Shown: piece after piece, positions 14,388 to 28,840 of the stretch | How the letters are laid out: each line of letters opens with the position of its first letter | Position numbering within the stretch: the stretch's first letter is position 1 | NCBI GenBank assembly: GCA_963727815.1 | Contig: CAVSGV010000001.1 | Span: forward strand, 12,055-76,054 | DNA from: an uncultured bacterium | Lineage (GTDB): Bacteria > Margulisbacteria > WOR-1 > CAVSGV01 | Direction of reading: 5' to 3' | DNA: 64,000 nt | Notes under the pieces: model-generated | What the model saw: the letters and a program-made list of their open reading frames with translations, nothing else | What the model was told of the DNA's origin: nothing | The model's database searches: none | Position numbers and translations under genes: made by a program

Positions 14388-14822
14388 CTATTCTAATGTC
14401 AGTTTAAGGACCAGGGCATCTTCGCCCGCCCTCGGATAATAGCCTTTTCTCCTGGCTATTTCCTTGAAGCCGAAACCGGAATAAAGCTTCCTTGCCGCTT
14501 CGTTCGTGTTCCTGACCTCCAGGAAGATCTGCTCTATCCCCTCTTTGCCAGCTAACTCGATCAGATAACTTATCAGCTTTGAAGCGATCCCGCGTCTCCG
14601 GAATTCCTTTTTTACGGCGAGGTCCGTAATGTGCCCTTCATCCAGGACCTTTTCGAAGACCACGAAACCGGTGATATCTTCATCGGACAGGCATATGAAA
14701 ACATCTTTATTGTTCGAGCTTATCGCTTCCACAAAAAGCTCTCTGTCCCACGGATCGGGGAAAGATCCTGCTTCTATCTCCGCGATATCCTCTACATCGG
14801 CCTCAGTTGCTTTTTTTATCAC
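14388..14822 (-). CDS. rimI: GNAT acetyltransferase, ribosomal-protein-alanine N-acetyltransferase type
   Basis: 144-aa ORF with the acetyl-CoA motif RRRGIASKLI and size and pattern typical of RimI. Confidence 0.8.
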   Translation of the reverse strand: MIKKATEADVEDIAEIEAGSFPDPWDRELFVEAISSNNKDVFICLSDEDITGFVVFEKVLDEGHITDLAVKKEFRRRGIASKLISYLIELAGKEGIEQIFLEVRNTNEAARKLYSGFGFKEIARRKGYYPRAGEDALVLKLTLE

Positions 14823-14940: not shown

Positions 14941-15019
14941 TGTAGGGACGGGGCTTGCTTGCCCGCCTCTGGAGGGTCCCCGTCCGTGGTCTTGGACAGC
15001 CATAAAGGCTATCCCTACA
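14941..15019. repeat. Nested inverted repeat (REP-like hairpin) just downstream of the array
   Basis: TGTAGGGACGGGG...CCCCGTCC...TCCCTACA. The outer 8-bp arms are TGTAGGGA/TCCCTACA and the inner arms GGACGGGG/CCCCGTCC. It lies in the rimI-array spacer. Confidence 0.4.
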
Positions 15020-15091
15020 TAATAGACCTTGCAACAAAAGAGCACAGCTTGACTGTGCGATTAATATCCTTTTCTTGAACCTGCCACTTCC

Positions 15092-17059
15092 CTATTTAAT
15101 CCCGTATCTGTCTTTTATCATCTTCAGCGTATCCGCATCCATCGTCGTATCTTCCATCAGATCCTGTATTTCATCTTTTGAAAGCTCTTTGTTATCTATC
15201 AAGGGTTTGCATTCATCAGGAAATGGGACTTTTTTCTGTTCATATATGATATCTTGTGTGACCATGTTGCCGGAATTGTTCTTTGCCTCAGCTCTAAACA
15301 CAATGGATGGAGCTGATATAACAAGGAATTTGTCAGATTGCGTTATGGTCCATACATCGGCTTTTGGCCGTAAAGAAAGATGCATCACCTGGCCGTTATC
15401 GATCTGTAAAAGGCCCGTATCGATCTGCGACAGGATAGCTTGCGGGTCCGAAGCGGTGATCGTTAAATTCTTTTTGTCCGTATTTATGACGATCTCAATC
15501 CCCTCCCCTGTTATAAGCTTTGTTTTGAACGTCGTGATATCCGGCATGAGCAGCCCGGCAGTCACGCCTTTAGGCCCTGAAGCATCGCTTGCGGAATAGA
15601 TCAGCTTGTAGAAAAAGGGAGTGCACAGGTGCTTGAATGGCAGTTTTATCTTGAAAGGTTCAAGGGCAAGGGATAACATTAGGGCATTCCTGTCGATCGT
15701 GATCGTCGTTGTTTCCGGAGTTCCGGAATTGCCTGCGTTGTCGATGGCATAGCATTCCAGAGTGGTCACGCCGTCTGTATTTACCGATAGTGTGCCTTTA
15801 TCTGAAGAGATGATCTGCTCATCATTTTCAGCGCCGGTCTTTTTATAATGTATCTCTTTCACTCCGGAGCCATATTCGTCATCCGTCGCAACAAGTGTCA
15901 CTGTGATAGCGCTATTGTTCACCCCATCGCTGTTCGGCGCAGGAGAAACGGAATTTCTGGTGGTCGGAGGGATCAAGTCTGTCTTGACCTTCATCACATC
16001 CAGGCTGTCCGCATGGAACTGGAGGTAATAGACGTTCTGATAGTCGTCGACGAAAATATCCCTCCTCATTAGAAGCGAATTGCCGGGAAATTGTGTCTGG
16101 CATACCAACTGTCCTTTTTGATTGAATTTATACACGTATTCGTCATAACTGGTATAAAAATATTTCCCTTTTATTAAAGTGTCCTCCCCGGGAGAGCGTT
16201 TCACATACGCCGCAACATAAACATTTCCGGCAAAGTCAACAACCCATTGGGAAACGCCACGGGAATTCTCAAGGTTTTTATATTCATCAGGGAAAGAAAC
16301 AATAAACTGTTTAACCTTCTGCTTCCGCGAATTATATATACTGACATCCGCTCCAGAAGCATAATCACCATAATAATTTGGCTTGCCGAAATAATATTTG
16401 AGCTGACCTTGTGAGTATACTGGATCGATCGAATAATAACTTCCCTTATTATCCAAATATAAGCTGGGAACATCTTCTAATAAGTTGCCATTATTGTCCA
16501 ATTTAAGGCATTTCGTTTCTGTATTTTTTTCCTTATGCATCGGGTTGTAATATGTTTTTAAATATATGTCACCCTGGGCATCAACGTATATTCCGCCCAG
16601 ACTAATTCCCTCATAACGATCATCCTTCCTCACGATATCGGATAACGATTTAATCCAGATCAACAAGCCCGTTTCATTTATTTTGGCGACATAATCTTTG
16701 CCTGCATAATTCATGCCAGCAAAATATATATTTCCTGCGGGATCAACCCATGCACACGTATCAATTCCATATAATGATGGATTGTTTGGGGATTGCGCCT
16801 TCCCTATATAACTTCCATTAATATTAAATTTCTGCAGATCGATGTAAACAAAGCCATTTTTGATGTCAATAAAAAAGTTGCTTGGGCCTTTAGACTCTCC
16901 TGCATCTTGAAGATTTGAAGGCGGTATCAACATATTGATCTGGCCATCTCCGTTTCCATATGGCAAAGAAAATAGCACTTCTTGCGCTCTTCCTTGACTT
17001 GGAATCAGTAAAATACATAAAAACATTATTACAAATATATTATTTTTATTCATGTTCAA
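15092..17059 (-). CDS. Array member P5: secreted propeller-like/Ig-like protein with a unique ~200-aa C-terminal extension
   Basis: 655-aa ORF with signal peptide MNMNKNNIFVIMFLCILLIPSQGRA/QE and recurring D-x-x-G-N-I-Y type strand motifs. VDDYQNVYYLQFHADSLDVMKVKTD is followed by an Ig-like module (ATDDEYGSGVKEIHY...AIDNAGN). It is paralogous to 17586-19074, 19618-21114, 21373-22866 and 23425-24873. Confidence 0.85.
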   Translation of the reverse strand: MNMNKNNIFVIMFLCILLIPSQGRAQEVLFSLPYGNGDGQINMLIPPSNLQDAGESKGPSNFFIDIKNGFVYIDLQKFNINGSYIGKAQSPNNPSLYGIDTCAWVDPAGNIYFAGMNYAGKDYVAKINETGLLIWIKSLSDIVRKDDRYEGISLGGIYVDAQGDIYLKTYYNPMHKEKNTETKCLKLDNNGNLLEDVPSLYLDNKGSYYSIDPVYSQGQLKYYFGKPNYYGDYASGADVSIYNSRKQKVKQFIVSFPDEYKNLENSRGVSQWVVDFAGNVYVAAYVKRSPGEDTLIKGKYFYTSYDEYVYKFNQKGQLVCQTQFPGNSLLMRRDIFVDDYQNVYYLQFHADSLDVMKVKTDLIPPTTRNSVSPAPNSDGVNNSAITVTLVATDDEYGSGVKEIHYKKTGAENDEQIISSDKGTLSVNTDGVTTLECYAIDNAGNSGTPETTTITIDRNALMLSLALEPFKIKLPFKHLCTPFFYKLIYSASDASGPKGVTAGLLMPDITTFKTKLITGEGIEIVINTDKKNLTITASDPQAILSQIDTGLLQIDNGQVMHLSLRPKADVWTITQSDKFLVISAPSIVFRAEAKNNSGNMVTQDIIYEQKKVPFPDECKPLIDNKELSKDEIQDLMEDTTMDADTLKMIKDRYGIK

Positions 17060-17068
17060 TCCTCCTGA

Positions 17069-17575
17069 TTAATGCAGAACTAGTCTTCTTGGCTCATAGT
17101 TTTGGCGATCATAATTGCTATAATTGGTCCAAATACTATGAACCCCATTTGATTCGGGCGTACTTGTCCCTTCCGAGGCAATGATCTGAATATCGTTTGG
17201 AACAGTCGTGTTATTGCTGCTGATCCAATTTTTAATACGATATATAGTCACCACATGTTCCCCAGCGTTCACTAGAACATCTCCAGGCTGAATAGTTCTT
17301 AAATCATCAATGCTTGTGGAATAGCTCTCATGTGTTAGGTCACCCGTAAATGCATGCCATGGCCTCCAATGATATCCGGCCAGCAATGCGCCTGCACAAA
17401 CAAGACCAGAACAGTCTGAGCCATAACCCTGATAGCCATCGTCTCCGCCTACTCCAGCCCCCTCTTTTCCTCCGAACCAGTAACCGCCCCACTCATATGG
17501 TGAAAAGGGAGATGATGAGGCGATGAGATGACGAGGTGCAGGCAAGGGAAAAACGCCCGACATTTTCGTTGGCAT
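17069..17575 (-). CDS. Array member N4: small NlpC/P60-family peptidase, no signal peptide
   Basis: 168 aa with PYEWGGYWFGG...GYGSDCSGLVC (catalytic Cys context) and GEHVVTIY (catalytic His context). The N-terminus MPTKMSGVFPLPAPRHLIASSSP has no hydrophobic h-region. Confidence 0.85.
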   Translation of the reverse strand: MPTKMSGVFPLPAPRHLIASSSPFSPYEWGGYWFGGKEGAGVGGDDGYQGYGSDCSGLVCAGALLAGYHWRPWHAFTGDLTHESYSTSIDDLRTIQPGDVLVNAGEHVVTIYRIKNWISSNNTTVPNDIQIIASEGTSTPESNGVHSIWTNYSNYDRQNYEPRRLVLH

Positions 17576-17585
17576 ATTACCTTCT

Positions 17586-19074
17586 TTATTTCTTGCCGCG
17601 GATCCTAATCGTTGCAGTTTCTGACGACCCTATATTCTCAGCATAATCCACCGCATATGCTTTTATTGCCGTGGTCCCTTCAGCGCTTATTGCAAATGTC
17701 GCCTCGCTTGTCGTAAGCACTTCCTCGGCCGACACAGCTCCCGTCAATGAATAGTGTAATTCTTTCACTCCAGACCCCCATTCATTGTCCCTGGCGGTCA
17801 AAATGGCCTGAACTGCACCTATGTACCACTCGTCTTTGTCCTTATGCGGCTTTTTATCGTTCTTGTCATGGTCGGCCCCTTCTTTGCCCTTGCCCAGCTT
17901 ATCGTCTTTGTTTTGCTTTCCCCTGTCGTCCTTATCCTTGTCGTTGTCTAAACGTTCCGGCTTAATGGCTATATCCACTTCTGGTGAGATTGTGTCTGTC
18001 TTGACCTTCATCACATCCAGGCTGTCCGCATGGAACTGGAGATAATAGACGTTCTGGTAGTCGTCCACGTGGATCTTTCTTGTTCAAATCTACTGGATAA
18101 CCCGGGAACATAAATTGGGATACGAGCTTCCCTTGCCGATCAAACTTATAAACAAAATAATCGTCAGGGATAAGAAACACGTCATCTAAAAGCTTGATCA
18201 TTTTATCAGGGTCCCTGATTACAAATGCTGCAACATATATATTACCCTTGAGATCAACCTCCCATTGGTAAACCCCGCGATAATTATTAGATCGCATAAA
18301 ATCTGCAGGCAGGGAAATTTTGAGCTTCTTGTGAAATTGCTTCTCGGGATTTAGAATGCTAATGTCAGCCCCGGACTTGTAATCACCAGCATATTTCTCA
18401 CCCCAGGCATATAAATTCCCCGTGGAATAAATTGTATTAAATACATAATAGTTGCCATCCTTATCTAAGTGAAAACTTGGCACCTCTCCTAATAAGCTAC
18501 CATTTTGATCTAATTTAAGATATTTTGTCTCCGCAGATTGATTTTGTGGATTTGCTCTATACCATACTTCAAGATAGATATTTTCTTGATCATCAACATT
18601 GATTCCTCGAGCTATATCTTCATAGCTTTTGTTATGCGCAACAATTTCTTGTAATGATTTACTCCAGATCATTGAGCCATCCTTATTTGTTTTGGCTATT
18701 TGATTAGAGTTGTTATGTAAATCACTAAACCCCGAAACATAAACATTCTCTTCCGAATCCACCCACGAACAGGTTCGTATCCCACTGAAAGGCTGATTCT
18801 CTTCGTACTTAATTTTACCTATGAATTCACCATTAGTTTTATATTTTTGTAAATCTACATAAACCACATCATGTTTAATGTCCACAAAAAACCAGCCCGG
18901 GCCTGAAGCATCTCCTTGTTCCTGAAGATTGGGGTCAGGTATATACATATATACTTGGCCGGCCTGTTTACCATAAGGCACAGAAAAAAGAACTTCTTGA
19001 GCGAAAACCCTGTTAGGCATAAGTAAAACACAAATAATTATAATGAGGAAAATAATGTTTTTTTTCATTTTCAA
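17586..19074 (-). pseudogene. Array member P4: propeller/Ig paralogue interrupted by a frameshift near 18075
   Basis: ORF 17962..19074 covers the signal peptide and propeller part, ending ...FPGYPVDLNKK then out-of-frame DPRGRLPERLL. ORF 17586..18068 (…VDDYQNVYYLQFHADSLDVMKVKTDTISPEV...IRIRGKK) continues the paralogue alignment in another frame. A single extra G at about 18075 separates them. Confidence 0.75.
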
Positions 19075-19085
19075 CCCCCTGATTT

Positions 19086-19601
19086 TTAATGCCTCGCGAG
19101 TTTTCGAGCTAGATATCCTATTTTAGGATCCAAATAATCCTTAAATAATTTTTTGCCTGTCAAAATAGTAACGCCATTTGAATAAGACGCCTTGAGAATA
19201 TTGCCTTCTGAGGCAATAACACTGATTTCATTCGGTGTACCATCAGCTTCTCTGCTACTTATCCCATAAACTGTCACTACATGCTCATCTGGATTAACTA
19301 AAATATCCCCCGGCTGCAAATCTTTCAGATTTGTTATTTTCCTGGAATAATACTCATTAGTCAATGTTGCAGTATAAGGGCGCCACGGTTTCCAATGATA
19401 TCCCGCCCGCAAGGCCCCAATGCTAACTAATCCCGAACAATCTATCCCATATCCTTCATAGGATACATGGCCGCCGACATCGTTCCCTTCTTGCCCTCCA
19501 AACCAATATCCGCCCCACTCATAAGGTGGAAAGGGAGATGATGAGGCGATGAGATGACGAGGTGCAGACGCAGGCAAGGGAAGAACCCCCGACATTTTCA
19601 T
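19086..19601 (-). CDS. Array member N3: small NlpC/P60-family peptidase, no signal peptide
   Basis: 171 aa: MKMSGVLPLPASAPRHLIASSSPFPPYEWGGYWFGG...GYGIDCSGLVS...DEHVVTVYG. Confidence 0.85.
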   Translation of the reverse strand: MKMSGVLPLPASAPRHLIASSSPFPPYEWGGYWFGGQEGNDVGGHVSYEGYGIDCSGLVSIGALRAGYHWKPWRPYTATLTNEYYSRKITNLKDLQPGDILVNPDEHVVTVYGISSREADGTPNEISVIASEGNILKASYSNGVTILTGKKLFKDYLDPKIGYLARKLARH

Positions 19602-19617
19602 AGGGATATGACCTTGT

Positions 19618-21114
19618 TTATTTCTTGCCGCGGATCCTTATTGTAGCTGTTTCTGCATTCCCAACATTCTCCGCGTTATCCACCGCATATGCATTTATTA
19701 CCGTAGTCCCTTCAGCGCTTATTGCAAATGTCGCCTCGCTTGTCGTGAGCACTTCCTCTGCCGACACAGCTCCCGTCAATGAATAGTGTAATTCTTTCAC
19801 TCCAGACCCCCATTCATTGTCCCTGGCGGTCAAAATGGCCTGAACTGCACCTATATACCACTCGTCTTTGTCCTTATGCGGCTTTTTATCGTTCTTGTCA
19901 GGGCCGGCCCCTTCTTTGCCCTTGCCCAGCTTATCGTCTTTGTTTTGCTCTCCCCTGTCGTCCTTATCCTTGTCGTTGTCTAAACGTTCCGGCTTAATGG
20001 CTATATCCACTTCTGGAGAGATAGTATCCGTTTTAATCTTCATGATGTTCAAATGGTCGGCATAGAACTGGAGGTAATAGACGTTCTGGTAGTCGTCGAC
20101 GTGGATTTTGTCGCTTAAATCTACAGGATACCCGAGGAATTTAAACAGAGATACAAGCTTGCCTTGCCGATCGAACTTGTAAACATACAGATTTTGTCCG
20201 ATAAAAAAACCGTTGCCTACCAGTTTAATAATTTTATCCGGAGCATATTTTTCAAAGGCAGTTATATATATATTGCCTGCAGGGTCAATATCCAATTGGG
20301 AAATACCGCGATAATCTTCAAGCTTTTTAAACTCGCTGGGCAGAGAAATGCTAATTTTCTTTAATAATTTATTGTCAGGATTAAAAATATCAACATCGGC
20401 ACCTGATTCATAATCGCCAAAATAGTTCGGATCGCCCGAAAAATAACTCAGCTTTCCTTTTGAAGAGGTTGGATAAAATACATAATAATTCCCATTCTTA
20501 TCCAGCTGATAGCTCGGTACGTTCCCCAGATAATTGCCGTTCTTGTCTAATTTAATATATTTAGTTACCCCCATTTCATCGTTGGGATTTGCCCTGAAAT
20601 AAACTTCAAGATATATGTCACCCGAAGCATCCACATAAATGCCCCTATCAATATCTTCATACCGCTTATCATCCCCCACGATTTCCCGCAATGATTTGCT
20701 CCAAATCACTGAACCACTTTTGTTTAACTTCGCAATATAACTATCCCCAGCAGTATTCGCTCCGGAAAAATAAATATTTTCTTCTGTGTCCACCCAGGAA
20801 CAGGTTAATATGCCTTCAAACAATGGGTTCTCTTTGGTTATAATTCTACCAATGTACGCTCCATCAGTAGTAAATTTCTGCAAATCTATATAAACAATAT
20901 TATGAATAATATCGACAAAAAAACGACCCGGCCCCGAAGCATCACCTTGGTCCCGAAGATTGGGGTCGGGTATATACATATGTACTTGAGCACCTTGTTC
21001 GCCATAAGGTACTGAAAAAAGTAACTTTTCTGCAAACATTTTATTGGGAAAAAGAAAAATTCCGATAATCAGCACAAAATAGCCAATTTTTTTGTAGAAA
21101 ACATTTATCTTCAT
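19618..21114 (-). CDS. Array member P3: secreted propeller-like/Ig-like protein
   Basis: 498 aa with a signal peptide (…IGIFLFPNKMFA/EK). Repeated motifs are FFVDIIHNIVY, SWVDTEENIYF, IYVDASGDIYL, QLDKNGNYYVF, DIDPAGNIYITAF, KFDRQGKLV and HVDDYQNVYYL. It also has a Lys/Asp-rich linker and an Ig-like C-terminus. Confidence 0.88.
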   Translation of the reverse strand: MKINVFYKKIGYFVLIIGIFLFPNKMFAEKLLFSVPYGEQGAQVHMYIPDPNLRDQGDASGPGRFFVDIIHNIVYIDLQKFTTDGAYIGRIITKENPLFEGILTCSWVDTEENIYFSGANTAGDSYIAKLNKSGSVIWSKSLREIVGDDKRYEDIDRGIYVDASGDIYLEVYFRANPNDEMGVTKYIKLDKNGNYLGNVPSYQLDKNGNYYVFYPTSSKGKLSYFSGDPNYFGDYESGADVDIFNPDNKLLKKISISLPSEFKKLEDYRGISQLDIDPAGNIYITAFEKYAPDKIIKLVGNGFFIGQNLYVYKFDRQGKLVSLFKFLGYPVDLSDKIHVDDYQNVYYLQFYADHLNIMKIKTDTISPEVDIAIKPERLDNDKDKDDRGEQNKDDKLGKGKEGAGPDKNDKKPHKDKDEWYIGAVQAILTARDNEWGSGVKELHYSLTGAVSAEEVLTTSEATFAISAEGTTVINAYAVDNAENVGNAETATIRIRGKK

Positions 21115-21117
21115 TTT

Positions 21118-21353
21118 TCAAACCCCCTGTTCCTTTAATGCGTCAAGAGTTCTTCTGGGTAGATAATAATGGCTATCATAATAATCGTAATTATGAAAGT
21201 TCTCAAGGACAGCACCGCCAACATTTTGTCCTTCTTTCCCTCCATACCAATACCCACCCCATTCATAAGGTGGAAAGGGAGATGATGAGGCGACGAGATG
21301 ATGAGGCGAAGCGGCGCGAAAACACAGAAGCAAGGAACCCCTATCCTTCTCAT
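21118..21353 (-). pseudogene. Array member N2: NlpC/P60 remnant lacking the catalytic core
   Basis: The frame 21118..21333 reads ...SPHHLVASSSPFPPYEWGGYWYGGKEGQNVGGA, then jumps directly to a C-terminal tail (VLENFHNYDYYDSHYYLPRR...). The roughly 110 aa holding DCSGLV and EHVV are missing. The unit's ATG (21353) is in a different frame. Confidence 0.75.
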
Positions 21354-21372
21354 TGGCTTGCTTACCTCTTTA

Positions 21373-22866
21373 TTACTCGCCGCGAATCCTTATTACAGCA
21401 GTTTCTGACGACCCTATATTCTCCGCGTTATCCACCGCGAATGCTTTAATCACTGTGGTTCCTTCCTCACTTATCGTAATGGTCGCTTCGGTAGTGGCCA
21501 ATACCTCTTCCGCCGATACCGCACCAGTAAGCAAGTAATGCAATTCTTTCACTCCAGACCCCCATTCATTGTCCTTCGCGGTCAAAATGGCCTGAACTGC
21601 CCCCATATACCACTTATCTTTGTCCTTATGTTGATTTTTATCATCCTTATCCTTGTCATGTCCCTTATTGTCTTGATCCGTCTTCCCCATTTTGTCGTGT
21701 TCGTTGCCCTTATCCTTGTCGTTGTCTAAACGTTCCGGCTTAATGGCTATATCCACTTCTGGAGATATTGTGTCTGTCTTTACCTTCATCACATCCAGAT
21801 GGTCGGCATAGAATTGGAGATAATAGACATTCTGATAAGTGTCTACCTGGATAGTTTTACCTAGCCCGATTGGATAACCCGGGAAATTTGTCTGAAAAAC
21901 TAATTTGCCTTCTTGATCAAACTTATAAATATAATAATCGTCTGGAATTACCAATACATTATCTATTAGCTTCATCCTTTGAGTGCGATCGCGGATTACA
22001 GCTGCCGTTGCATATATATTTCCCTCAAGGTCAACCCCCCAATCATACACATCACGATAATTACTATAATGAGTAAATTCATAAGGCAAAGAAATTTTGA
22101 CTTTTCGAGCCAACTTATTTCCTGAATCAATTATTTGCACATCGGCGCCAGAAGTATAATCCCCGACATATTTCTCGCCAAACATTACTGTACCAAACAA
22201 GTTGCCTTTAGAATAAATCGGGGAAAAAACATAGTAATTACCATTCTTATCCAGATGACAACTAGGGACTTCTCCAAGCAAACTTCCATTTTGATCGAGT
22301 TTAAAGCACTTTATTCCAGCTGTCTTGTCTTGAGCATTCGCCCTATAATATACCTCAAAATACACATTGCCTTGCGCATCCACATTAATTCCCTCTGCAT
22401 TTACTCCCTCATAACGCTTGTCTTGAGCAAACAGGTCAGGCAATGATTTAATCCACATCAACACCCCATCTTTATTTAATTTAATGATCTGATCGTAATG
22501 GCCTGTTGGATGCGGAACTATTGCATATACGTTTTCTTCAGCGTCAATCCATGAACATGTTTTCATCCCTTTCAATAGCTGATTATCTGGGGGTGTTACT
22601 TTACTAATAAATTCCCCCTTCATATTAAATTTTTGCAAATCAATAAATACATCATTTAAGCTGCCATCCGCCGAAAACCATCCAGGACCCGTTGCTCCGC
22701 TATGTTCCTTAACATTTGGACTGGGAATATACATAGATACTTGGCCATCCCCGTCTCCATAAGGTAATGAAAAGAGCAAATCTTGGGCAAACACGACCTG
22801 CGGCAATAAAAGACCCAAAACAATGAAAAATAATCCAAAAATTGTCTTACACGTTTGTTTTACCAT
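21373..22866 (-). CDS. Array member P2: secreted propeller-like/Ig-like protein
   Basis: 497 aa with signal peptide MVKQTCKTIFGLFFIVLGLLLPQVVFA/QD. It has the same architecture as the other P members. This is the most diverged copy of the conserved C-terminal module, with linker KDKGNEHDKMGKTDQDNKGHDKDKDDKNQHKDKDKW. Confidence 0.88.
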   Translation of the reverse strand: MVKQTCKTIFGLFFIVLGLLLPQVVFAQDLLFSLPYGDGDGQVSMYIPSPNVKEHSGATGPGWFSADGSLNDVFIDLQKFNMKGEFISKVTPPDNQLLKGMKTCSWIDAEENVYAIVPHPTGHYDQIIKLNKDGVLMWIKSLPDLFAQDKRYEGVNAEGINVDAQGNVYFEVYYRANAQDKTAGIKCFKLDQNGSLLGEVPSCHLDKNGNYYVFSPIYSKGNLFGTVMFGEKYVGDYTSGADVQIIDSGNKLARKVKISLPYEFTHYSNYRDVYDWGVDLEGNIYATAAVIRDRTQRMKLIDNVLVIPDDYYIYKFDQEGKLVFQTNFPGYPIGLGKTIQVDTYQNVYYLQFYADHLDVMKVKTDTISPEVDIAIKPERLDNDKDKGNEHDKMGKTDQDNKGHDKDKDDKNQHKDKDKWYMGAVQAILTAKDNEWGSGVKELHYLLTGAVSAEEVLATTEATITISEEGTTVIKAFAVDNAENIGSSETAVIRIRGE

Positions 22867-22886
22867 TTTTTCCTCCCGTTTTAACG

Positions 22887-23408
22887 CTAACGTCTAACTA
22901 ATCTTCTGGTTTCATAATCATTATCTAGATAATATTTAAGGTTGTTTTGAAAGTTATCGTTTTTAATGACAGCGACACCATTCAAAAAGAGTAATCCTTC
23001 TTTTTTGGAAATACGATCCTCAGAAGAAATGACCTCAATTTTATCGGGAACCCCTCGAGTAATTGTGTCTATATTAAAAAGGGTTACAACATGTTCTCCT
23101 GGTTTCAGCAAAATATCCCCTGGCTGTAAAGTTCTTGGATCAATACTTGTAGAATAAAATTCATTTGTTAACGTTGACGTAGTAGCCCTCCATGGATGCC
23201 AATTATACCCCGCCCGTAATGCCCCATTGCTGACAAGCCCGGAACAATCCATCCCATATCCTTCATATGCATTATGCCCTCCGACGTTAACCCCTTCTTT
23301 CCCGCCAAACCAATATCCGCCCCATTCATAAGGTGGAAAGGGAGATGATGAGGCGATGAGATGACGAGGTGCAGACGCAGGCAAGGGAAGAACCCCAGAC
23401 ATTTTCAT
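22887..23408 (-). CDS. Array member N1: small NlpC/P60-family peptidase, no signal peptide
   Basis: 173 aa: MKMSGVLPLPASAPRHLIASSSPFPPYEWGGYWFGG...GYGMDCSGLVS...GEHVVTLFN. Confidence 0.85.
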   Translation of the reverse strand: MKMSGVLPLPASAPRHLIASSSPFPPYEWGGYWFGGKEGVNVGGHNAYEGYGMDCSGLVSNGALRAGYNWHPWRATTSTLTNEFYSTSIDPRTLQPGDILLKPGEHVVTLFNIDTITRGVPDKIEVISSEDRISKKEGLLFLNGVAVIKNDNFQNNLKYYLDNDYETRRLVRR

Positions 23409-23424
23409 ATGGATATGACCTTCT

Positions 23425-24873
23425 TTATTTCTTGCCGCGGATCCTTATTGTTGCAGTTTCAGATGACCCTATATTCTCAGCATAATCCACCGCATATGCT
23501 TTTATTACCGTGGTACCTTCAGTGCTTATTGCAAATGTCGCCTCGCTTGTCGTAAGCACTTCCTCTGCCGAAACAGCTCCCGTTAATGAATAGTGCAATT
23601 CTTTCACTCCAGAACCCCATTCATTGTCCCTGGCGGTCAAAATGGCCTGAACTGCACCTATATACCACTCGTCTTTGTCCTTATGCGGCTTTTTATCGTT
23701 CTTGTCTTTGTTTTGCTTTCCCCTGTCGTCCTTATCCTTGTCGTTGTCTAAACGTTCCGGCTTAATGGCTATATCCACTTCTGGAGATATTGTGTCGGTC
23801 TTGACCTTCATCACATCCAGATGATCGGCGTAGAATTGGAGATAGTAAACGTTCTGGGCGTCATCAATTTGAACGACTTTCCGTGTCCCTATTGGATAAC
23901 CATCAATTTTAGCTTTGAATTCAAGATGGCCTTTTTGGTTGAATTTGTAAACATAATAGTCATCCGAAATTTCGAACACATCCCCAACAATATGGGACCA
24001 TAAACTCTTATCTCTTGTGATATTGGCAACCGCATAAACATTACCCGCTGGGTCTACATTCCATTGTGACACTGTACGGAAATAGCTAGATTGTTTATAT
24101 TCAGCGGGAAGGTCAACAACAATCTTCTTGGTAAGATGGTTCTGTTGATCATAAACCTCAACATTAGCTCCAGATACGTAATCGCCATGGTATTTATCCC
24201 CAAAAAGTACAGTGCCATATAATTTACCAGTTGAATAAACTGGATTAAAAACAAAATAATCCTCTGCTTTATCTAAATAACAACTAGGCACTTCCCCCAG
24301 TAAATTTCCACCGCTGTCCAGCTTAAGATACTTTTCATCAACAGTTTGATTTACTGAATTCGCACGAAAATCAGTTTGCATATATATATTTCCTTGAGTG
24401 TCCACATAAAAGCCTTCTCCAACATCTTCATAGCGTTTATCCTGAGCTACTATGTCCAGCAGGGATCTTGCCCATATTATTGACCCATATTTACTTATTT
24501 TCGCCACATTATCATATCCATTCAATGGATGCTTCATAACAGAATAAATATTCCCGTCATTATCCACAAAACAACTTGACCGCATATATTTAAATATAGG
24601 ATCATTCGGCGGTTGAATCTTACCAATAAATTCTCCGTTAAGGCTAAACATTTTCAGGTCAATATATGCTTTGTCATTATTAGCATCAACAAAAAACCAT
24701 CCCGGTCCCGCAGCCTCGCCTGCATCTTCAAGATTCGGATTTGGAATAAACATATAAATTTGCGCATCCTGTTGCCCATACGGGACGGAAAAAAGCACTC
24801 CCTGGCCAAATAGTTTATTCGGTATAAGTAATAAACACACAATTAATACCAGAATACAAAGATCCTTTTTCAT
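23425..24873 (-). CDS. Array member P1: secreted propeller-like/Ig-like protein
   Basis: 482 aa with signal peptide MKKDLCILVLIVCLLLIPNKLFG/QG, a propeller-like region, a shorter Lys/Asp linker and the conserved Ig-like C-terminus (...DNEWGSGVKELHYSLTG...AVDYAENIGSSETATIRIRGKK). Confidence 0.88.
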   Translation of the reverse strand: MKKDLCILVLIVCLLLIPNKLFGQGVLFSVPYGQQDAQIYMFIPNPNLEDAGEAAGPGWFFVDANNDKAYIDLKMFSLNGEFIGKIQPPNDPIFKYMRSSCFVDNDGNIYSVMKHPLNGYDNVAKISKYGSIIWARSLLDIVAQDKRYEDVGEGFYVDTQGNIYMQTDFRANSVNQTVDEKYLKLDSGGNLLGEVPSCYLDKAEDYFVFNPVYSTGKLYGTVLFGDKYHGDYVSGANVEVYDQQNHLTKKIVVDLPAEYKQSSYFRTVSQWNVDPAGNVYAVANITRDKSLWSHIVGDVFEISDDYYVYKFNQKGHLEFKAKIDGYPIGTRKVVQIDDAQNVYYLQFYADHLDVMKVKTDTISPEVDIAIKPERLDNDKDKDDRGKQNKDKNDKKPHKDKDEWYIGAVQAILTARDNEWGSGVKELHYSLTGAVSAEEVLTTSEATFAISTEGTTVIKAYAVDYAENIGSSETATIRIRGKK

Positions 24874-24883
24874 ATAGCCCCTC

Positions 24884-26953
24884 CTAATGTTTTACGAGTC
24901 TTCTAATTTGATATTTACTGTATTTCCCAAAGTGATCCGTAAAGACTGCCACTCCGTTCGGGATAGAAACATCTTCTCTGGCCAAATAATCCCCTTCTGA
25001 GTCGATGAGCATGATTTTATCCGGTATCCCGTGCAAATAACTCTTTATACCATATATTGTAACGACATGTTCTCCAGGCCAAACCAAAATATCGCCAGGT
25101 TGAATGTTCCTTGGATCAACACTTATTGAATAATAGTTGTCAGCCAAAGTTGTTGTTTTGACGCGCCACCCACGCCAATTATATCCTGCCCTCAACGCTC
25201 CAACACAAACCAACCCAGAACAATCTATTCCGTATCCATCATAAGTTTCAGCACCGCCAACATTTTGTCCTTCTTTCCCTCCATACCAATACCCACCCCA
25301 CTCATAAGGGACTCCGCTATAAGTGGTCAGCCATTTAATATAATTTGTACCCCAATGATCTGATGGTGCAGTATTGTCCAAAACACTGATCCTTGAAGAA
25401 TATTCAGAGGTGGCAGATACTACAGATTGCCCGCTTAATGAAACAGTGACTTTAAGTCTTTGGTTCCCTGAGGAAAAAATAATATTGTCAGCCCCCCATG
25501 AAGTTAGGACATTATTTGCAGCTTCGTCATACCAGTAATTCCTATTATATGTATCACCTATACTGTCACTGCCGCGATGGATCAAATTCTTCCATTCAAA
25601 AACCGGCTGCGGCCAGGTGGAAGGCCATTTGTATATTACCGGCGCCTCGGTGGTGCTTAAGACTGGAACTTTCAGAACAGGCGGGCTGATCCCGGCCTGC
25701 GCTCCCTCACTGCCGGTAGCGAACCACTTCCCATCGTTCACCACTTCATCTTGAGTTTGCTGAGTATATGCCCTCACTTCACCGCTCCCATCATCTGCCC
25801 ATACTATAGCACGAACGGTCACCAGCGTATCTGTTGTGGGATATCCTGCAACGGGTAAGCCATAGGTCGACGTTCCGTGGCGGTAATAGATACCGACTTT
25901 TTTAAGGGGAGATTCTTTTTTGGGAGTAGCTAAAAATATCTGCTCGCTAGTCCCGCAGTAGCTATCCCAGCCTATTTCGCCATTATTCATAACAGGATCA
26001 TAACTCCAAAGAATGGGAAACTCACTATAAACTTTCGCGTTGGTAATTTGCGTGGTCTGACCGCTATCATATAAAAATATATCCACGTGATATCCGCCAG
26101 AATAATTATGGCTCTCCCAGACTAATTTCCCATCATTATCTAAGCAGGGAAAATAATTCTGTAGAGCATTATTGGTGATCGGCTTGGGCTGACCGCCGTC
26201 ATATAAATATATCTGATAGGAACCTCCTGGAGAATAACCGGCCCAGGCTATTTTGCCGTTATTTATATTGACATCCCAATTATAGGCGGTTGTATTAGGA
26301 TCCGAAATTTGTCTCACCTCAGGACTGGCATTTGGATCATATAAATATATATTATAGCCATTGCCATCGTAGCCAGACCAGGCTACTTGGCCGTTATTTA
26401 TGCAAGGGCTTCTATTATCGATAGTATTATAAGGATTGGGAACTGGTATAACCTCAGGACTGGCATTAGGATTATATAAATATATCTGGTAGGTATTGCC
26501 ATCGTAGCCAGACCAGGCTATTTGGCCGTTACTTATGCTGGGGAAAAAATTATCGTAACCACTATTGGAGATCGGTATGGGCTGACCACCATCATATAAA
26601 AATATCTGATCGTTATTGCCATCAAAGCTATGCCAGACAACCTGGCCGTTACTTATTTTGGGATGAGGGCTATTGTAATTGTTGGGATTATTTGTAAAAT
26701 TGCCGATCGGTTTAATTTGGTGGCCATCATACAAATAAAACAATCCACTGCCATCGGGGGTTTGAGTATACCAGGCTATTTGGCCGTTACTTATACTGGG
26801 GAAATAATTATTGTACTCATTATTTGTAAATTGAGTAACTGCATATTCAACCGCCCAGACTTTGATCGCGGACAAGAAAAAGCAACAAAAGACAATAAAA
26901 ATGCTGATAAAAACTTTATTTCTCAGAACACGATCTTTACAATTTGATAACAT
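24884..26953 (-). CDS. Array member F0: secreted 7-repeat (propeller-like) protein fused to a C-terminal NlpC/P60 peptidase domain
   Basis: 689 aa with signal/anchor ...FISIFIVFCCFFLSAIKVWA/VE. There are seven repeats of about 45 aa of the type P-x-I-S-N-G-Q-I-A-W...Y-Q-I-Y-L-Y-D. The C-terminus is VPYEWGGYWYGGKEGQNVGGAETYDGYGIDCSGLVCVG...PGEHVVTIYG. Confidence 0.88.
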   Translation of the reverse strand: MLSNCKDRVLRNKVFISIFIVFCCFFLSAIKVWAVEYAVTQFTNNEYNNYFPSISNGQIAWYTQTPDGSGLFYLYDGHQIKPIGNFTNNPNNYNSPHPKISNGQVVWHSFDGNNDQIFLYDGGQPIPISNSGYDNFFPSISNGQIAWSGYDGNTYQIYLYNPNASPEVIPVPNPYNTIDNRSPCINNGQVAWSGYDGNGYNIYLYDPNASPEVRQISDPNTTAYNWDVNINNGKIAWAGYSPGGSYQIYLYDGGQPKPITNNALQNYFPCLDNDGKLVWESHNYSGGYHVDIFLYDSGQTTQITNAKVYSEFPILWSYDPVMNNGEIGWDSYCGTSEQIFLATPKKESPLKKVGIYYRHGTSTYGLPVAGYPTTDTLVTVRAIVWADDGSGEVRAYTQQTQDEVVNDGKWFATGSEGAQAGISPPVLKVPVLSTTEAPVIYKWPSTWPQPVFEWKNLIHRGSDSIGDTYNRNYWYDEAANNVLTSWGADNIIFSSGNQRLKVTVSLSGQSVVSATSEYSSRISVLDNTAPSDHWGTNYIKWLTTYSGVPYEWGGYWYGGKEGQNVGGAETYDGYGIDCSGLVCVGALRAGYNWRGWRVKTTTLADNYYSISVDPRNIQPGDILVWPGEHVVTIYGIKSYLHGIPDKIMLIDSEGDYLAREDVSIPNGVAVFTDHFGKYSKYQIRRLVKH

Positions 26954-26970
26954 CTTATTATTTCTGACCT

Positions 26971-28329
26971 TTATTCAACGTTCAATACCAAGCTTTCTTC
27001 TTTTGCTCCCCATTTGGCCAAGGCATATACTCGAGCAATAAGTTCATATTGTCCTAGTTGGGTGACCTTAACCCGGAATGTAAATTCTTTAGTCGTACCC
27101 CCTTTTAATGGTCCCAGGTATAATACTACAGCATTCACGTACATCGAGACTTTCTGTGCTTTACTCCTTCCCTCAAAATTGGGACGAATAAAAGTTCCTG
27201 TCTCTTCTACAGGCTCTATTCCTACGGGCAAGAGACAGCTTATCTCCGCTTGCATATCCTGTGGTATGGTTACTACGAGTTGCAAGATCGCTTCTTCACT
27301 CACTTTGGGAGTATTTGCCAGACTGAATTGAATACTTACGGGAGATGGTAACGGTCCTTTCACGCTTGTTGAAACCGTCGGTGCAGCATTGGCCGTCACA
27401 GAGGTCGTATTTGTTTCTACTGTCACACTGATCGTACTTGATTCACTTTCAACACTTATATTTCCTGGCGCTGCAATTTCGCCCGTATTCACAACGGTTT
27501 CTTGACTTCCAGGAATCCCTGTGGAGATTGATTCTACTGTTGCAACTTTGTTAGCTGTCGACTCGCTCACGCCTGCGGGAGTAACATTGCCTGTTACATT
27601 AATTGCGCCAGGTGTTTCAATTGAAATTGTATTCGTAATCGGCACCTGATTTTCCGCAGTTCCTGATTCTACCGTAGTACTTTTATTCTCAACAACTTCT
27701 ACTGAAACTGCCGGCGCAATATTGCTGATCGCAGGAACTACAGCAGGCATACTGACTACACTCGTATTTACAACCGGAGATTGATTCACATTAGCGCCTG
27801 ATTCTGCCGTCGCACTTTTATTTTCAACAACTTCTACTGAAACTGCCGGCACGACATTATTGATCACGGGAACTGAAGCGGGCGCACTAACCGTACTCGT
27901 ATTTACGATCGGCGATTGATTCACATTAGCGCCTGATTCTACAGTTGCACTCTTGTTCTCAACAACTTCTGCTGAAACTGCCGGCACAACATTGTTGATC
28001 ACAGGAACTGCAGCAGGCACGCTGACCACGCTCGTATTAACGATCGGCATTGGATTTACTGGGCTTGTTATGGCTCCTCCTGCCGGTTTTGTTACAGCCG
28101 TTGCTCCGGCTGGAGTAACAGTGCCGGTCACGCCTATCGCGGCTGGAATACTTACCGCATTTGAATTCCCAACTGGGATTTGATTCGTAGCACCCGCGGG
28201 ATTTGCTTCTGCTGTTACGTTATTGCTGCCAACCACTTCCGAACTGAGCTCCTGGGCAATTCCATAAGAAGAGAATGTTATACAGATGAGCCCGGCAAGA
28301 AGAATATTTGAAACGATCTTTTTAAGCAT
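26971..28329 (-). CDS. Array member R0: secreted Val/Asn/Ser/Thr-rich tandem-repeat protein with a beta-sandwich-like C-terminal domain
   Basis: 452 aa with signal peptide MLKKIVSNILLAGLICITFSSYGIA/QE. It has three near-identical 45-aa repeats and one degenerate repeat. The ~110-aa C-terminal domain resembles CARDB/DUF11-type folds; this is inference from its pattern of alternating hydrophobics. Confidence 0.8.
   Translation of the reverse strand: MLKKIVSNILLAGLICITFSSYGIAQELSSEVVGSNNVTAEANPAGATNQIPVGNSNAVSIPAAIGVTGTVTPAGATAVTKPAGGAITSPVNPMPIVNTSVVSVPAAVPVINNVVPAVSAEVVENKSATVESGANVNQSPIVNTSTVSAPASVPVINNVVPAVSVEVVENKSATAESGANVNQSPVVNTSVVSMPAVVPAISNIAPAVSVEVVENKSTTVESGTAENQVPITNTISIETPGAINVTGNVTPAGVSESTANKVATVESISTGIPGSQETVVNTGEIAAPGNISVESESSTISVTVETNTTSVTANAAPTVSTSVKGPLPSPVSIQFSLANTPKVSEEAILQLVVTIPQDMQAEISCLLPVGIEPVEETGTFIRPNFEGRSKAQKVSMYVNAVVLYLGPLKGGTTKEFTFRVKVTQLGQYELIARVYALAKWGAKEESLVLNVE
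27643..28047 (-). repeat. Coding tandem repeat, 3 x 135 bp (plus a degenerate 4th copy down to about 27505)
   Basis: The string AACAACTTCTRCTGAAACTGCCGGC recurs at 27691, 27826 and 27961, a period of 135 nt. The protein unit is P(I/V)VNTS.VS.PA.VP.I.N..PAVS.EVVENKS.T.ESG...NQ. Confidence 0.85.
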
Positions 28330-28379
28330 TTTATTTATTCCCTGATCTTTTTGACCTTGAGAATTTCCGGCGTTTTAAC

Positions 28380-28408
28380 AATGGATCATCAAAAAACCAT
28401 GATCCATT
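28380..28408. promoter_or_regulatory. Perfect 10-bp palindrome upstream of the array (possible operator or 5'-UTR hairpin)
   Basis: AATGGATCAT-caaaaaacc-ATGATCCATT, lying 51-79 nt upstream of the R0 start codon in the trxA/array divergent spacer. Confidence 0.3.
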
Positions 28409-28456: not shown

Positions 28457-28485
28457 TTGTATTTCCCCTCCGGCTTTAGTAAAAT
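28457..28485 (+). promoter_or_regulatory. Candidate trxA promoter
   Basis: TTGTAT (28457-28462), a 17-nt spacer, then TAAAAT (28480-28485), followed by a GGAGG RBS and the ATG at 28517. This is a sequence match only. Confidence 0.3.
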
Positions 28486-28516
28486 CAAAATCCGGTGCGA
28501 TGGGAGGAAAAACAAT

Positions 28517-28840
28517 ATGAGCAAAGCTCAGGAAGTTAACGAATCGAATTTCGACGAGGAAGTGCTGAGGCACACCGCGCCCGTGCTCGTGGATTTCTGG
28601 GCGTCCTGGTGCGCTCCCTGCAGGACCCTCGCCCCCATCATCGACGCCACGGCGGCAGAGTTCACCGGAAAAGTAAAAGTGGTGAAACTGAACGTTGACG
28701 ACAATCAAAGCATCGCAGCCAAATACGCCGTAATGAGCATCCCGACGCTCGTTATATTCAAGGACGGCAAGGAAGCGGAACGCTCCGTCGGTTTCATCTC
28801 CCTGAAAAACCTTTCGGACAAACTAAAATCCCATTTATGA
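28517..28840 (+). CDS. trxA: Thioredoxin
   Basis: 107-aa product MSKAQEVNESNFDEEVL...VDFWASWCAPCRTLAPI, with the WCxPC active site. GGAGG lies 8 nt upstream. The ORF-track start at 28457 is an upstream extension. Confidence 0.93.
   Translation: MSKAQEVNESNFDEEVLRHTAPVLVDFWASWCAPCRTLAPIIDATAAEFTGKVKVVKLNVDDNQSIAAKYAVMSIPTLVIFKDGKEAERSVGFISLKNLSDKLKSHL

Follow-up and report, generated by a model that had tools for sequence, protein, structure and literature searches.

The analysed stretch of DNA, a window of 64,000 nucleotides, carries a 13-kb island with the gene order R0, F0, P1, N1, P2, N2', P3, N3, P4', N4 and P5 (Table 1). R0 did not match any Pfam or NCBIfam profile. A 183-aa homologue of its C-terminal domain was found in the nearest related locus, L007, directly upstream of an F0 orthologue. 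F0 matches the Pfam profile NLPC_P60 (PF00877) with 23.2 bits, just at the curated cut-off of 23 bits, and also matches beta_prop_Msarc repeats. The P genes code for beta-propeller proteins with an Ig module, and the AlphaFold2 (AF2) model of P1 is an all-beta propeller plus Ig (pLDDT 85). P5 shares its architecture with P0006, P0007 and the P gene of L007, and this is the full-length ancestral architecture of P. Two of the units are damaged: the frameshift in P4 sits at the boundary between the variable and the constant part of the gene, and an internal deletion in N2' takes out the DCSG and HV motifs. In N4, the leader has an in-frame deletion of 6 nt and the first ATG differs.

The GC content of the island is 40-42% versus 47-53%, and the NlpC/P60 domain was found in none of the 60 relatives that were searched. 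Because of the low GC content and the missing domain in these relatives, the island looks accessory. A scan of the array for promoters and terminators gave site counts at chance level, with the hairpin after P5 as the sole exception to be named. The genome is that of a diderm (BamA is present) and codes for secretins, so that a periplasm is available.

Table 1. Features of the island, with positions in the window.
Feature	Position	Strand	Description
R0	26971..28329	(-)	first gene of the island; signal peptide; 45-aa repeats and compact C-terminal domain
F0	24884..26953	(-)	signal peptide, beta-propeller repeats, pre-domain of ~200 aa, complete C-terminal NlpC/P60 domain; candidate full-length exported toxin
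F0 domain start, PYEWGGYWYGGKEGQNVGGAE	25247..25309	(-)	homology boundary in common with the cassettes
P1	23425..24873	(-)	signal peptide; strong Shine-Dalgarno (SD) sequence AGGAGG; NHL-type beta-propeller plus Ig (OmpL47-type); candidate for the partner or immunity protein of the toxin domain in F0
Homogenised junction block, copy 1	23330..23860	(-)	propeller end, K/D-rich linker, Ig, stop, spacer, N leader, PYEWGG
Homogenised junction block, other copies	~19523-20019, 17499-18020, 21267-21822	(-)	copy 21267-21822 more diverged
N1	22887..23408	(-)	173 aa; non-homologous leader of 24 aa, then NlpC/P60 from PYEWGG; Cys55 and His106 present
P2	21373..22866	(-)	exported propeller plus Ig; SD GGGAGG; candidate partner of N1
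N2'	21118..21333	(-)	dead cassette; N-type leader, F0-like 5' end, internal deletion, own tail
P3	19618..21114	(-)	exported propeller plus Ig
N3	19086..19601	(-)	171 aa; orphan NlpC/P60 cassette
P4 (P4')	17586..19074	(-)	propeller plus Ig gene with frameshift; ORFs 17962-19074 and 17586-18068
N4	17069..17575	(-)	168 aa; orphan NlpC/P60 cassette
P5	15092..17059	(-)	propeller, Ig, C-terminal domain of 190 aa
Terminator-like hairpin	15042..15058	(-)	directly 3' of P5; consensus match only; possible end of the transcription unit

The domain encoded by the N genes is the same catalytic domain that forms the C-terminus of F0 but detached from the export device, as had been proposed in the original prediction: homology is shared from the motif PYEWGG onwards. 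With 21.1 bits (N1), 21.0 bits (N3) and 14.2 bits (N4), these three proteins remain below the PF00877 cut-off, and NCBIfam matches to RipB are weak. The subfamily has the signature PYEWGG...DCSGLV...HV...RRL and is barely recognised by PF00877 (14-23 bits). The catalytic Cys (in DCSG, at the start of a helix) and the downstream His (in HV) are invariant in alignments of 14 and of 16 sequences which include N1, N3 and N4, and these three keep all family-invariant residues. In the AF2 model of N1, the core (residues 53-130, pLDDT 74-97) adopts a papain-like alpha+beta fold, and residues 1-52 have a pLDDT below 55. A helix modelled at residues 13-21 reaches a pLDDT of only ~54 and is probably driven by the alignment. 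The top Foldseek matches of the model are RipB, the P60 protein MAP1204 and RipA (3pbi, 3s0q, 3i86), with probabilities of 0.84-0.99 but E-values of only 0.03-0.26, while a sequence search of the PDB with N1 returned only noise plus RipB at E = 2.7.

In all homologues, PYEWGG is preceded by a first helix, YLxWLxxY, which is present in F0 as NYIKWLTTY. For N1, N3 and N4, homology begins exactly at PYEWGG, and the first helix is replaced by an unrelated leader rich in Pro, Ser and Ala. Compared with the complete domain including this helix, F0 is complete and N1, N3 and N4 are not. Among 1.84 billion representative proteins, 92 relatives of the N1 domain were found. Their matches begin around residue 25 of N1, and in most of them the domain occupies the C-terminus of a protein of 300-3200 aa. 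The leader of 24 residues occurs in no other protein among these representatives, and its DNA has no second copy in the genome outside of the array. Similarity of the leader DNA to the post-Ig region of P5 and to the pre-domain region of F0 was not above that of shuffled controls.

N1 and N3 start with MKMSGVLPLPASAPRHLIASSSPF and N4 with MPTKMSGVFPLPAPRHLIASSSPF; MSGVLPLPASAPR is part of the N leader. Hydropathy analysis and a motif scan agree with the earlier statement that these starts have no hydrophobic h-region, lipobox Cys or twin-arginine motif: a hydrophobic run, an RR pair and a Cys upstream of the catalytic DCSG are all absent from N1, N3 and N4. Their maximal Kyte-Doolittle mean over 10 residues, within the first 45, is 0.85-1.03, versus 2.8-4.0 for R0, F0 and P1-P5. 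The latter all have an uncharged hydrophobic run of 10-17 residues and thus the clear, classic signal peptides that had been ascribed to the other proteins of the array. A TM-like segment was not detected in N1, N3 and N4 either (maximum over 19 residues at most 0.86). It had been suggested to inspect the N genes for alternative upstream starts, and none was found, as the frame stays open for only 12-15 codons in the 5' direction and does not contain ATG, GTG or TTG.

Ribosome-binding sites are strong for the P genes (AGGAGG or GGGAGG). The N genes have only GAAGG or AAGG; the distance is 4-10 nt to their first ATG, which is not conserved, and 16 nt to the ATG that is. Each of N1, N3 and N4 is an intact ORF of 168-173 aa which begins with an in-frame ATG behind a weak SD-like sequence and codes for both catalytic residues, Cys and His. 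They could thus be translated in place, and this counts against considering them as orphan cassettes.

We analysed 57 related loci, which belong to Armatimonadota, Omnitrophota, Desantisbacteria, UBP15 and other uncultured phyla. A P-like gene directly follows the NlpC/P60 domain copy in 52 of the 55 copies that have enough downstream DNA, with a gap of ~0-85 nt in the 12 genome loci that allowed a clean measurement. As a rule, the domain makes up the C-terminal end of a larger protein (400-1165 aa), and an exported multidomain body with the toxin domain at its extreme C-terminus is the arrangement of F0, of most of the 92 relatives and of most of the 57 loci. Judged from this synteny and from the C-terminal position of the domain in larger proteins, the conserved pair is N followed by P and not P followed by N.

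The original prediction had considered P and N together as a split version of the F0 architecture. This was not supported, as P is homologous to the separate gene which follows F0-type genes and not to the N-terminal half of an F0-type protein. In L007, the F0 orthologue is directly followed by a P5-type gene without any N gene. The F0 protein and this orthologue, which is its only relative, share ~32-67% identity along the full length (~45% throughout). A hallmark of polymorphic toxin systems is a nearly constant N-terminal body whose C-terminal toxin differs among close strains; the two F0 proteins are diverged throughout. Because L007 has only R0-like, F0 and P5-like genes, the array is, from this comparison of loci, a local expansion. 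Most P-like proteins do not have any Ig module. One P homologue (P0003 in L001) has an IS element upstream but no NlpC/P60 gene within 10 kb upstream. Although this was counted against the orphan-cassette reading, it neither helps nor refutes it.

Orphan domain fragments also occur in other lineages, each of them after a P gene or a P-gene remnant, but their cut points differ. The cut is at -35 aa in L045, at -12 aa in L012, at DCSG in L050, L057 and L016, and in mid-domain in L014, where the Cys is lost and the fragment has an ATGA overlap with the P gene. Together with N1, N2', N3 and N4, these six are solo cassettes without trafficking parts which are arranged as pairs.

The junction block is 93-100% identical among units 1, 3 and 4, while both of its flanks are only 50-68% identical. 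Its dS of 0.28-0.41 is sharply bounded, and the flanks are saturated. As the synonymous sites are conserved too and dS is low, the conservation of the Ig module and of the N leader is at the DNA level, which points to gene conversion rather than to protein docking. It had been speculated that these two form a docking pair, but this interpretation is not supported, also since the pair that is conserved across phyla is N followed by P. On the evidence of the synonymous sites, the conservation of the block is due to recent gene conversion or to common descent of the DNA, and not to selection on an interface. The block boundaries coincide with the starts of the variable toxin core and of the variable propeller.

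For the N cores, dN/dS is 0.10-0.24 (three of six pairwise comparisons, those with estimable dS). Because of these values and because all family-invariant residues have been kept, the cores have diverged as working domains. The four toxin cores are equidistant (54-60%), which also fits an old in-place duplication under selection and was counted against the orphan-cassette reading.

At the domain start, N2' is identical to F0 in 60 of 63 nt, with an exact run of 52 nt. The same segment of F0 is identical to N1, N3 and N4 in only 43-50 of 63 nt (68-79%), and the longest exact run is 11-14 nt. By this comparison, N2' is a chimera which consists of an N-type leader and of F0 sequence from PYEWGG onwards, which is evidence that recombination has taken place where the toxin domain begins. 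As for N1, N3 and N4, their homology to F0 at PYEWGG is poor for a RecA-type exchange, since it is short, of limited identity and without longer exact runs, and this was counted against the orphan-cassette reading.

We consider it fairly probable that F0 is an exported toxin, that P1-P5 are periplasmic immunity-type partners and that N1, N3 and N4 are orphan toxin cassettes. The island would then be a Sec-dependent polymorphic-toxin-type locus, with F0 as its sole complete exported protein, in which a signal peptide, a propeller stalk and a pre-domain precede the C-terminal NlpC/P60 peptidoglycan hydrolase domain. Each NlpC/P60 unit would pair with the next gene, which codes for an exported NHL-type beta-propeller protein, so that the cognate pairs would be F0-CT/P1, N1/P2, N2'/P3, N3/P4 and N4/P5. 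N1, N3 and N4 would be copies of the toxin domain which were severed at PYEWGG, without the first helix and without export parts, and they would have no signal peptide because they are such cut-off cassettes. A variable cassette, made up of an N core and the propeller of the next P, would be flanked by copies of the homogenised block of ~0.5 kb. We infer from the synteny (P genes after 52 of 55 NlpC/P60 copies) that P is a periplasmic immunity or inhibitor protein, and peptidoglycan is presumably the target. The cassettes may serve as a reservoir which is loaded onto F0 by recombination, with the P genes providing standing immunity, and the N ORFs would not be exported as such. For an immunity protein, the P proteins are large (350-650 aa), which was counted against this reading.

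The arrangement resembles the orphan cdiA-CT/cdiI and rhs-CT/rhsI modules, where a full-length exported toxin gene and an immunity gene are followed by 5'-truncated toxin fragments, each with an immunity-type gene (Poole et al. 2011, PMC3150448). The CDI/Rhs orphans are demarcated by a conserved motif (PMC3150448), and fragments begin at a conserved peptide motif in both cases, VENN there and PYEWGG here. It is also common to both that cut points vary, that some modules decay and that the array is on one strand with tiny gaps. However, the toxin of our locus is a Sec-exported, propeller-stalked NlpC/P60 hydrolase rather than a T5SS or T6SS protein, and the putative immunity protein is an exported beta-propeller and not a small cytoplasmic protein. 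Unlike most CDI orphans, the orphans described here have an ATG and a unique leader of 24 aa. Further differences from CDI/Rhs are the short, diverged stretch of homology with the main gene and the position of the homogenised block, most of which falls within the 3' portion of the immunity gene.

Zhang, Aravind et al. (2012, PMC3482391) have described polymorphic toxin loci in which solo cassettes form toxin-immunity pairs, and their survey lists a Sec-dependent class with beta-propeller repeats. Tox-NlpC/P60 systems from this survey likewise have a C-terminal NlpC/P60 domain of papain fold, predicted to degrade the cell wall of the target. In the survey, these are listed only with delivery by T6SS, PVC or TcdB/TcaC, in Bacteroidetes and deltaproteobacteria, and an immunity family is not named (PMC3482391). 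The systems described here differ by a plain signal peptide, by hosts from uncultured phyla and by a dedicated P-like partner. RipA, RipB and other housekeeping NlpC/P60 proteins match the N1 model best in structure and have the Cys-His core in the same motifs, but the sequence similarity is marginal. Unlike the N/P array, they are encoded by single exported genes, which neither form polymorphic arrays nor have a constant partner gene downstream.

It is unlikely that tandem duplication left the N genes behind as inert by-products without a role as reservoir, after a single illegitimate junction between the Ig end and PYEWGG had been amplified by unequal crossing-over, with only the P genes in use. 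The identical junction in every unit, the deletion in N2' and the frameshift in P4, the weak ribosome-binding sites of N compared to the strong ones of P, the poor homology to F0 for exchange, and the Cys lost by the L014 orphan would all be accounted for. However, dS of the cores is saturated, and three unselected ORFs of 170 codons which are still open and retain every invariant residue would be unexpected unless they had been captured very recently. In addition, the N2' chimera argues that exchange with F0 does occur, and orphan modules are found in several phyla.

Alternatively, N1, N3 and N4 might be working leaderless hydrolases which are translated in place and reach the wall by docking to, or piggy-backing on, the Ig module of the P encoded upstream, by a novel signal in the leader, or by lysis or vesicles. 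This, too, is quite unlikely. In its favour are intact ORFs which start with ATG behind an SD-like GAAGG and retain every catalytic and invariant residue, the low dN/dS of the cores, the in-frame indel of 6 nt in the N4 leader, the synonymous nature of three of the five leader substitutions, and the tight spacing to the P stop, which might allow translational coupling. But the leader is devoid of a hydrophobic core, RR motif and lipobox, is found in no other protein, takes the place of the first helix and belongs to the part of the model with a pLDDT below 55. Its conservation, like that of the Ig module, is at the DNA level. Across phyla, the conserved order is N before P, and the Ig module is absent from most P-like proteins. 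Orphans elsewhere lack PYEWGG or the catalytic Cys, and N2' and P4 are decaying.

More unusual readings of the array are very unlikely in our opinion. The homogenised 0.5-kb block might be a dedicated recombination module which shuffles toxin-immunity cassettes into and out of the F0 site, similar to antigenic variation, or N might be made and exported by the Ig module of the upstream P, which would represent a new, signal-less and partner-dependent type of export.

Measured from the start of the P stop codon, the ATG lies 19, 22, 19 and 13 nt away in the four units, which is +1 in frame throughout, as had been noted. Two caveats apply to this offset. In unit 2, the ATG at 21353 is outside the NlpC/P60 frame, and the remnant (21118-21333) shares frame 0 with P2, after TAATAA. 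Furthermore, the junction is inside the block with its 93-100% identity among units 1, 3 and 4, so that the offsets are not four independent observations. The accompanying conclusion that simple read-through fusion is unlikely can be retained. A prfB-type +1 frameshift was considered and rejected, as neither a shifty P-site codon nor an SD sequence ~3 nt upstream was found in the overlap of 6-11 codons.

That a single exported P-N fusion protein arises by a programmed +1 frameshift or other recoding at the P stop is extremely unlikely. It is true that the offset is constantly +1 and that the frames share an overlap of 6-11 codons ahead of the P stop, that the leader, being rich in Pro, Ser and Ala, resembles an interdomain linker, and that a fused architecture exists in F0. 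However, the overlap (ATA AGG ATC CGC GGC AAG AAA TAA) does not contain a shift-prone codon, no tRNA can re-pair in +1, an SD sequence 3 nt upstream as in prfB is absent, and the A-run is too short for transcriptional slippage. The offset, within one homogenised block, is a single observation. It varies in other lineages (e.g. the ATGA overlap in L014), P2 ends with TAATAA in frame 0, and the fusion would still be without the first helix of the domain.

In Tae-Tai systems, a leaderless enzyme of NlpC/P60 type is followed by an exported partner. As in Tae/Tai and Tse1/Tsi1, a wall amidase or endopeptidase of NlpC/P60 or papain fold without signal peptide is encoded beside a periplasmic immunity protein with signal; here, in contrast, the complete domain forms part of a Sec-exported protein, the copies without signal peptide are cut short, and T6SS genes (TssC/VipB, Hcp) were not found. 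A role of the N proteins as leaderless effectors that depend on a contractile or another dedicated secretion system, akin to the T6SS NlpC/P60 effectors discussed elsewhere (PMC12994826), with P as periplasmic immunity protein, would match the leaderless N with an exported P next to it, but has next to no probability, as TssC/VipB and Hcp were not found in the genome (only 70% complete), no T6SS adaptor, PAAR or VgrG gene was apparent among the genes of the island, the family is otherwise always fused to bodies that bear a Sec signal, and the truncated first helix speaks against a finished effector.

In summary, the N cassettes most likely represent detached, spare copies of the toxin domain in a polymorphic toxin locus, and an exported immunity-type partner comes after each of them. 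The paradox of wall hydrolases without export signal resolves once the genes are phased as N followed by P. While this type of locus is already familiar, what is new, from the sequence comparisons, is a small and poorly annotated NlpC/P60 subfamily at the C-terminus of Sec-exported proteins, almost always followed by a gene for an NHL-type beta-propeller without annotation. For genome annotation, this means that a short leaderless ORF of NlpC/P60 type located behind such genes is better labelled as a cassette than as an enzyme. If P is an immunity protein, it would represent the first dedicated immunity family for Tox-NlpC/P60, and arrays of toxin-immunity cassettes would operate in uncultured diderms with small genomes which are devoid of T5SS and T6SS machinery.

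As the original prediction claimed, the small NlpC/P60 ORFs N1, N3 and N4 lack an export signal. Their N-termini read MKMSGVLPLPASAPRHLIASSSPF (N1 and N3) and MPTKMSGVFPLPAPRHLIASSSPF (N4), and a hydropathy and motif scan found no h-region, RR motif, early Cys or transmembrane segment. The maximal 10-residue Kyte-Doolittle mean is 0.85-1.03 in the N proteins, as compared to 2.8-4.0 in R0 (the first island gene), F0 (an exported protein with C-terminal NlpC/P60 domain) and P1-P5 (exported propeller proteins). There is no alternative upstream start, as the frame is already closed 12-15 codons further 5′ and this interval contains no start codon.

The Pfam match is marginal (F0 23.2 bits at a cut-off of 23; N1 21.1, N3 21.0, N4 14.2), and when 1.84 billion representative proteins were searched exhaustively with HMMER, just 92 relatives of the N1 domain emerged. 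In nearly all of these, the match starts at about N1 residue 25 and is located at the C-terminus of proteins of 300-3200 aa. The helix YL(K/R)WL(T/S)xY directly precedes PYEWGG in all relatives inspected; in N1, N3 and N4, its place is occupied by an unrelated Pro/Ser/Ala-rich leader, which has no match in P5, F0 or the rest of the genome. At the DNA level, similarity between F0 and the N genes ends exactly upstream of CCTTATGA (PYE). Because of the C-terminal position in relatives and the leader in place of the helix, we consider N to be a 5′-truncated copy of a C-terminal NlpC/P60 module and not a normal stand-alone enzyme. The AF2 model of N1 is confident for residues 53-130 only, and its best PDB neighbours are the P60 domains of RipB, RipA and MAP.

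Truncated N fragments with various start points recur behind a P gene or a P gene remnant in unrelated loci. The UBP15-type orphans start with M(R)MSAN..DCSG right behind the P stop, and their frame is open backwards for about 40 codons into the 3′ end of the P gene. Compared with the main toxin, they diverge mainly in the final ~35 residues, which may represent a specificity region.

Features of the array and of related loci (L numbers) from other genomes and metagenomes.
Feature	Sequence	Coordinates	Strand	Remark
trxA	window	28457-28840		flanks array
R0	window	26971-28329	-
F0	window	24884-26953	-	689 aa
P1	window	23425-24873	-
N1	window	22887-23408	-
P2	window	21373-22866	-
N2′	window	21118-21333	-	remnant
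P3	window	19618-21114	-
N3	window	19086-19601	-
P4	window	17962-19074 / 17586-18068	-	frameshifted
N4	window	17069-17575	-
P5	window	15092-17059	-
terminator-like hairpin	window	15042-15058	-	just 3′ of P5
rimI	window	14388-14822		flanks array
homogenised block, unit 1	window	23330-23860
Lys/Asp-rich linkers	window	23690-23790, 19760-19990, 21540-21700
N fragment	L045			starts 35 aa before helix
N fragment	L012			starts within helix, behind P remnant
N fragment	L050	1892-2353		UBP15-type, starts at DCSG
N fragment	L057	9458-9910		UBP15-type, starts at DCSG
N fragment	L016	11573-11620		UBP15-type, starts at DCSG
N fragment	L014			starts mid-domain, Cys lost
R0 C-terminal domain homologue	L007	7872-8423		183 aa, no repeats
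propeller with copper-amine-oxidase-N-like domain	L009	1820-3187
propeller with copper-amine-oxidase-N-like domain	L018	6629-7987
propeller with copper-amine-oxidase-N-like domain	L012	9486-9956
NlpC/P60 gene and three P-like genes	L030	4776-8573
IS (rve-family transposase)	L001	8732-9852		GCA_028712365.1

The genes form a tightly packed minus-strand array between rimI and trxA, and the transcription unit has no plausible end other than the hairpin behind P5. GC is 40-42% in the island (15000-28400) versus 47-53% in the flanks, and the island NlpC/P60 domain was found in none of 60 relatives searched from the same family, order or class. Both suggest horizontal acquisition and fit an accessory, horizontally moving conflict locus.

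We analyzed synteny in loci that encode the N-type domain, 14 of them taken from species genomes and 43 of metagenomic origin. A P-like gene immediately follows this domain in 52 of the 55 copies for which 700 nt or more of 3′ sequence is available, with a gap of 0-85 nt in the 12 genome loci where this is cleanly measurable. Host labels include Armatimonadota, Omnitrophota, Desantisbacteria, UBP15 and "Hebobacteria". In the nearest relative, L007, an R0-like gene, an F0 orthologue and a P5-like gene occur with nothing further, so the array has arisen by local expansion between F0 and P5. The pairing is thus N then P, and a P+N pair as a split F0 architecture, which had been proposed, is not supported. 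In L007, a homologue of the R0 C-terminal domain is encoded immediately 5′ of the F0 orthologue; R0-type genes may be a third conserved operon member.

P homologues are rare, have no dedicated Pfam family and elsewhere share the architecture of P5 (signal peptide, propeller, Ig, C-terminal domain). The AF2 model of P1 (pLDDT 85) shows an NHL/YVTN-type beta-propeller and an Ig/PKD-like domain. The P-like genes 3′ of the domain code for a signal peptide, a start (V/L)LFS.xYG and an end GN.YYL.F..D..DV, and most lack the Ig module. In some, a C-terminal copper-amine-oxidase-N-like domain replaces Ig, so the extra propeller-fused domain is lineage-specific. In one locus, L030, a single NlpC/P60 gene precedes three consecutive P-like genes, a poly-immunity-like arrangement. 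In L001, an IS is found directly upstream of the P homologue P0003, and no NlpC/P60 gene occurs upstream in the 10 kb fetched.

Upon alignment of the four successive P+N units, a sharply bounded block of ~0.5 kb became evident, which is 93-100% identical among units 1, 3 and 4 and ~80% identical to unit 2, while the flanks on both sides are only 50-68% identical. It extends from the propeller end (DDYQNVYYLQF) over the K/D linker, Ig, stop, spacer and leader up to PYEWGGYWFGG. In its coding part, dS among P1, P3 and P4 is 0.28-0.41; for the propellers and N cores, dS has reached saturation. The strict conservation of Ig module and leader, for which a docking pair had been one speculative reading, is thus at the sequence level a conservation of DNA, by gene conversion or recent common descent, and does not point to a protein interface. 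Under the re-phased pairing, the variable unit, N core plus following propeller, would be a toxin-immunity cassette. P1-P4 carry a Lys/Asp-rich low-complexity linker of variable length (DNDKDKDDRGKQNKD...) between propeller and Ig, which is absent from P5 and all P homologues elsewhere.

N2′, the remnant of a fourth N gene, is a three-part chimera of an N-type leader, F0 sequence and its own N1-like tail. Behind the leader, 60 of 63 nt are identical to F0 (with an exact run of 52 nt), as compared to 43-50 of 63 for N1, N3 and N4. We regard this as direct evidence that sequence has been exchanged with F0, the expression site. An internal deletion of ~110 codons between short GCTG repeats has removed the catalytic core. 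The frameshift of P4 is located exactly at the boundary between variable propeller and block, before DDYQNVYYLQF; it may have been left behind by an imprecise conversion tract, or be an assembly artefact of the repeat. It is unlikely that the N genes as a whole are inert duplication relics. N1, N3 and N4 retain the catalytic Cys (DCSG), His (HV) and all family-invariant residues, and of six pairwise comparisons of the N cores, the three with estimable dS give dN/dS of 0.10-0.24, so that the cores diverged under purifying selection as working domains.

We consider it fairly probable that the locus as a whole encodes a Sec-dependent toxin with orphan N cassettes and P partners, which builds on the observed architecture, synteny, N truncation, DNA-level block homogenisation and one F0/cassette chimera. 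F0 would be exported by Sec, possibly further, and then attack peptidoglycan. Judging from synteny, the P protein after each NlpC/P60 unit would be its periplasmic inhibitor or immunity protein, with P2-P5 providing standing immunity. N1, N3 and N4 would be orphan cassettes that have no export function themselves and form a reserve of alternative toxin heads, from which recombination at the PYEWGG boundary may place a head onto F0. Such recombination would carry along the correct downstream P. Weak points are that the N genes share only a short, diverged stretch of homology with F0 and that the N ORFs are intact and have ATGs.

Translation of N in place, with non-classical or P-assisted export, is quite unlikely. 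Strong SD sequences (AGGAGG, GGGAGG or AGGGGG) precede all P genes at normal spacing; upstream of the N genes there is no more than GAAGG or AAGG, the first N ATG lacks a conserved position, and the ATG that is conserved lies 16 nt from this SD-like element. The offsets from P stop to N ATG (19, 22, 19 and 13 nt, all +1) are as reported, but all lie within one homogenised block and thus count as a single observation, and in unit 2 the ATG is out of the NlpC/P60 frame. Since the 6-11 codon overlap of the P and N frames contains neither a shift-prone codon nor a prfB-like SD, P2 ends with TAATAA, and the offset varies in other lineages, a P-N fusion by +1 frameshift is highly improbable. The genome is diderm (BamA was found) and has secretins; neither TssC nor Hcp was found in this only 70% complete genome, and we give hardly any credence to N as T6SS-type effectors.

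The puzzle of signal-less wall hydrolases is resolved by a known paradigm. In polymorphic toxin loci, a complete toxin and its immunity gene are followed by solo cassettes of toxin domains, each paired with an immunity gene (PMC3482391), which is the layout of this array. It also matches that of orphan modules in CDI/Rhs loci, whose limits are set by a conserved motif (PMC3150448). What is new is a formerly unannotated module, a predicted NlpC/P60 toxin with a beta-propeller partner, which occurs, orphan arrays included, across uncultured phyla.
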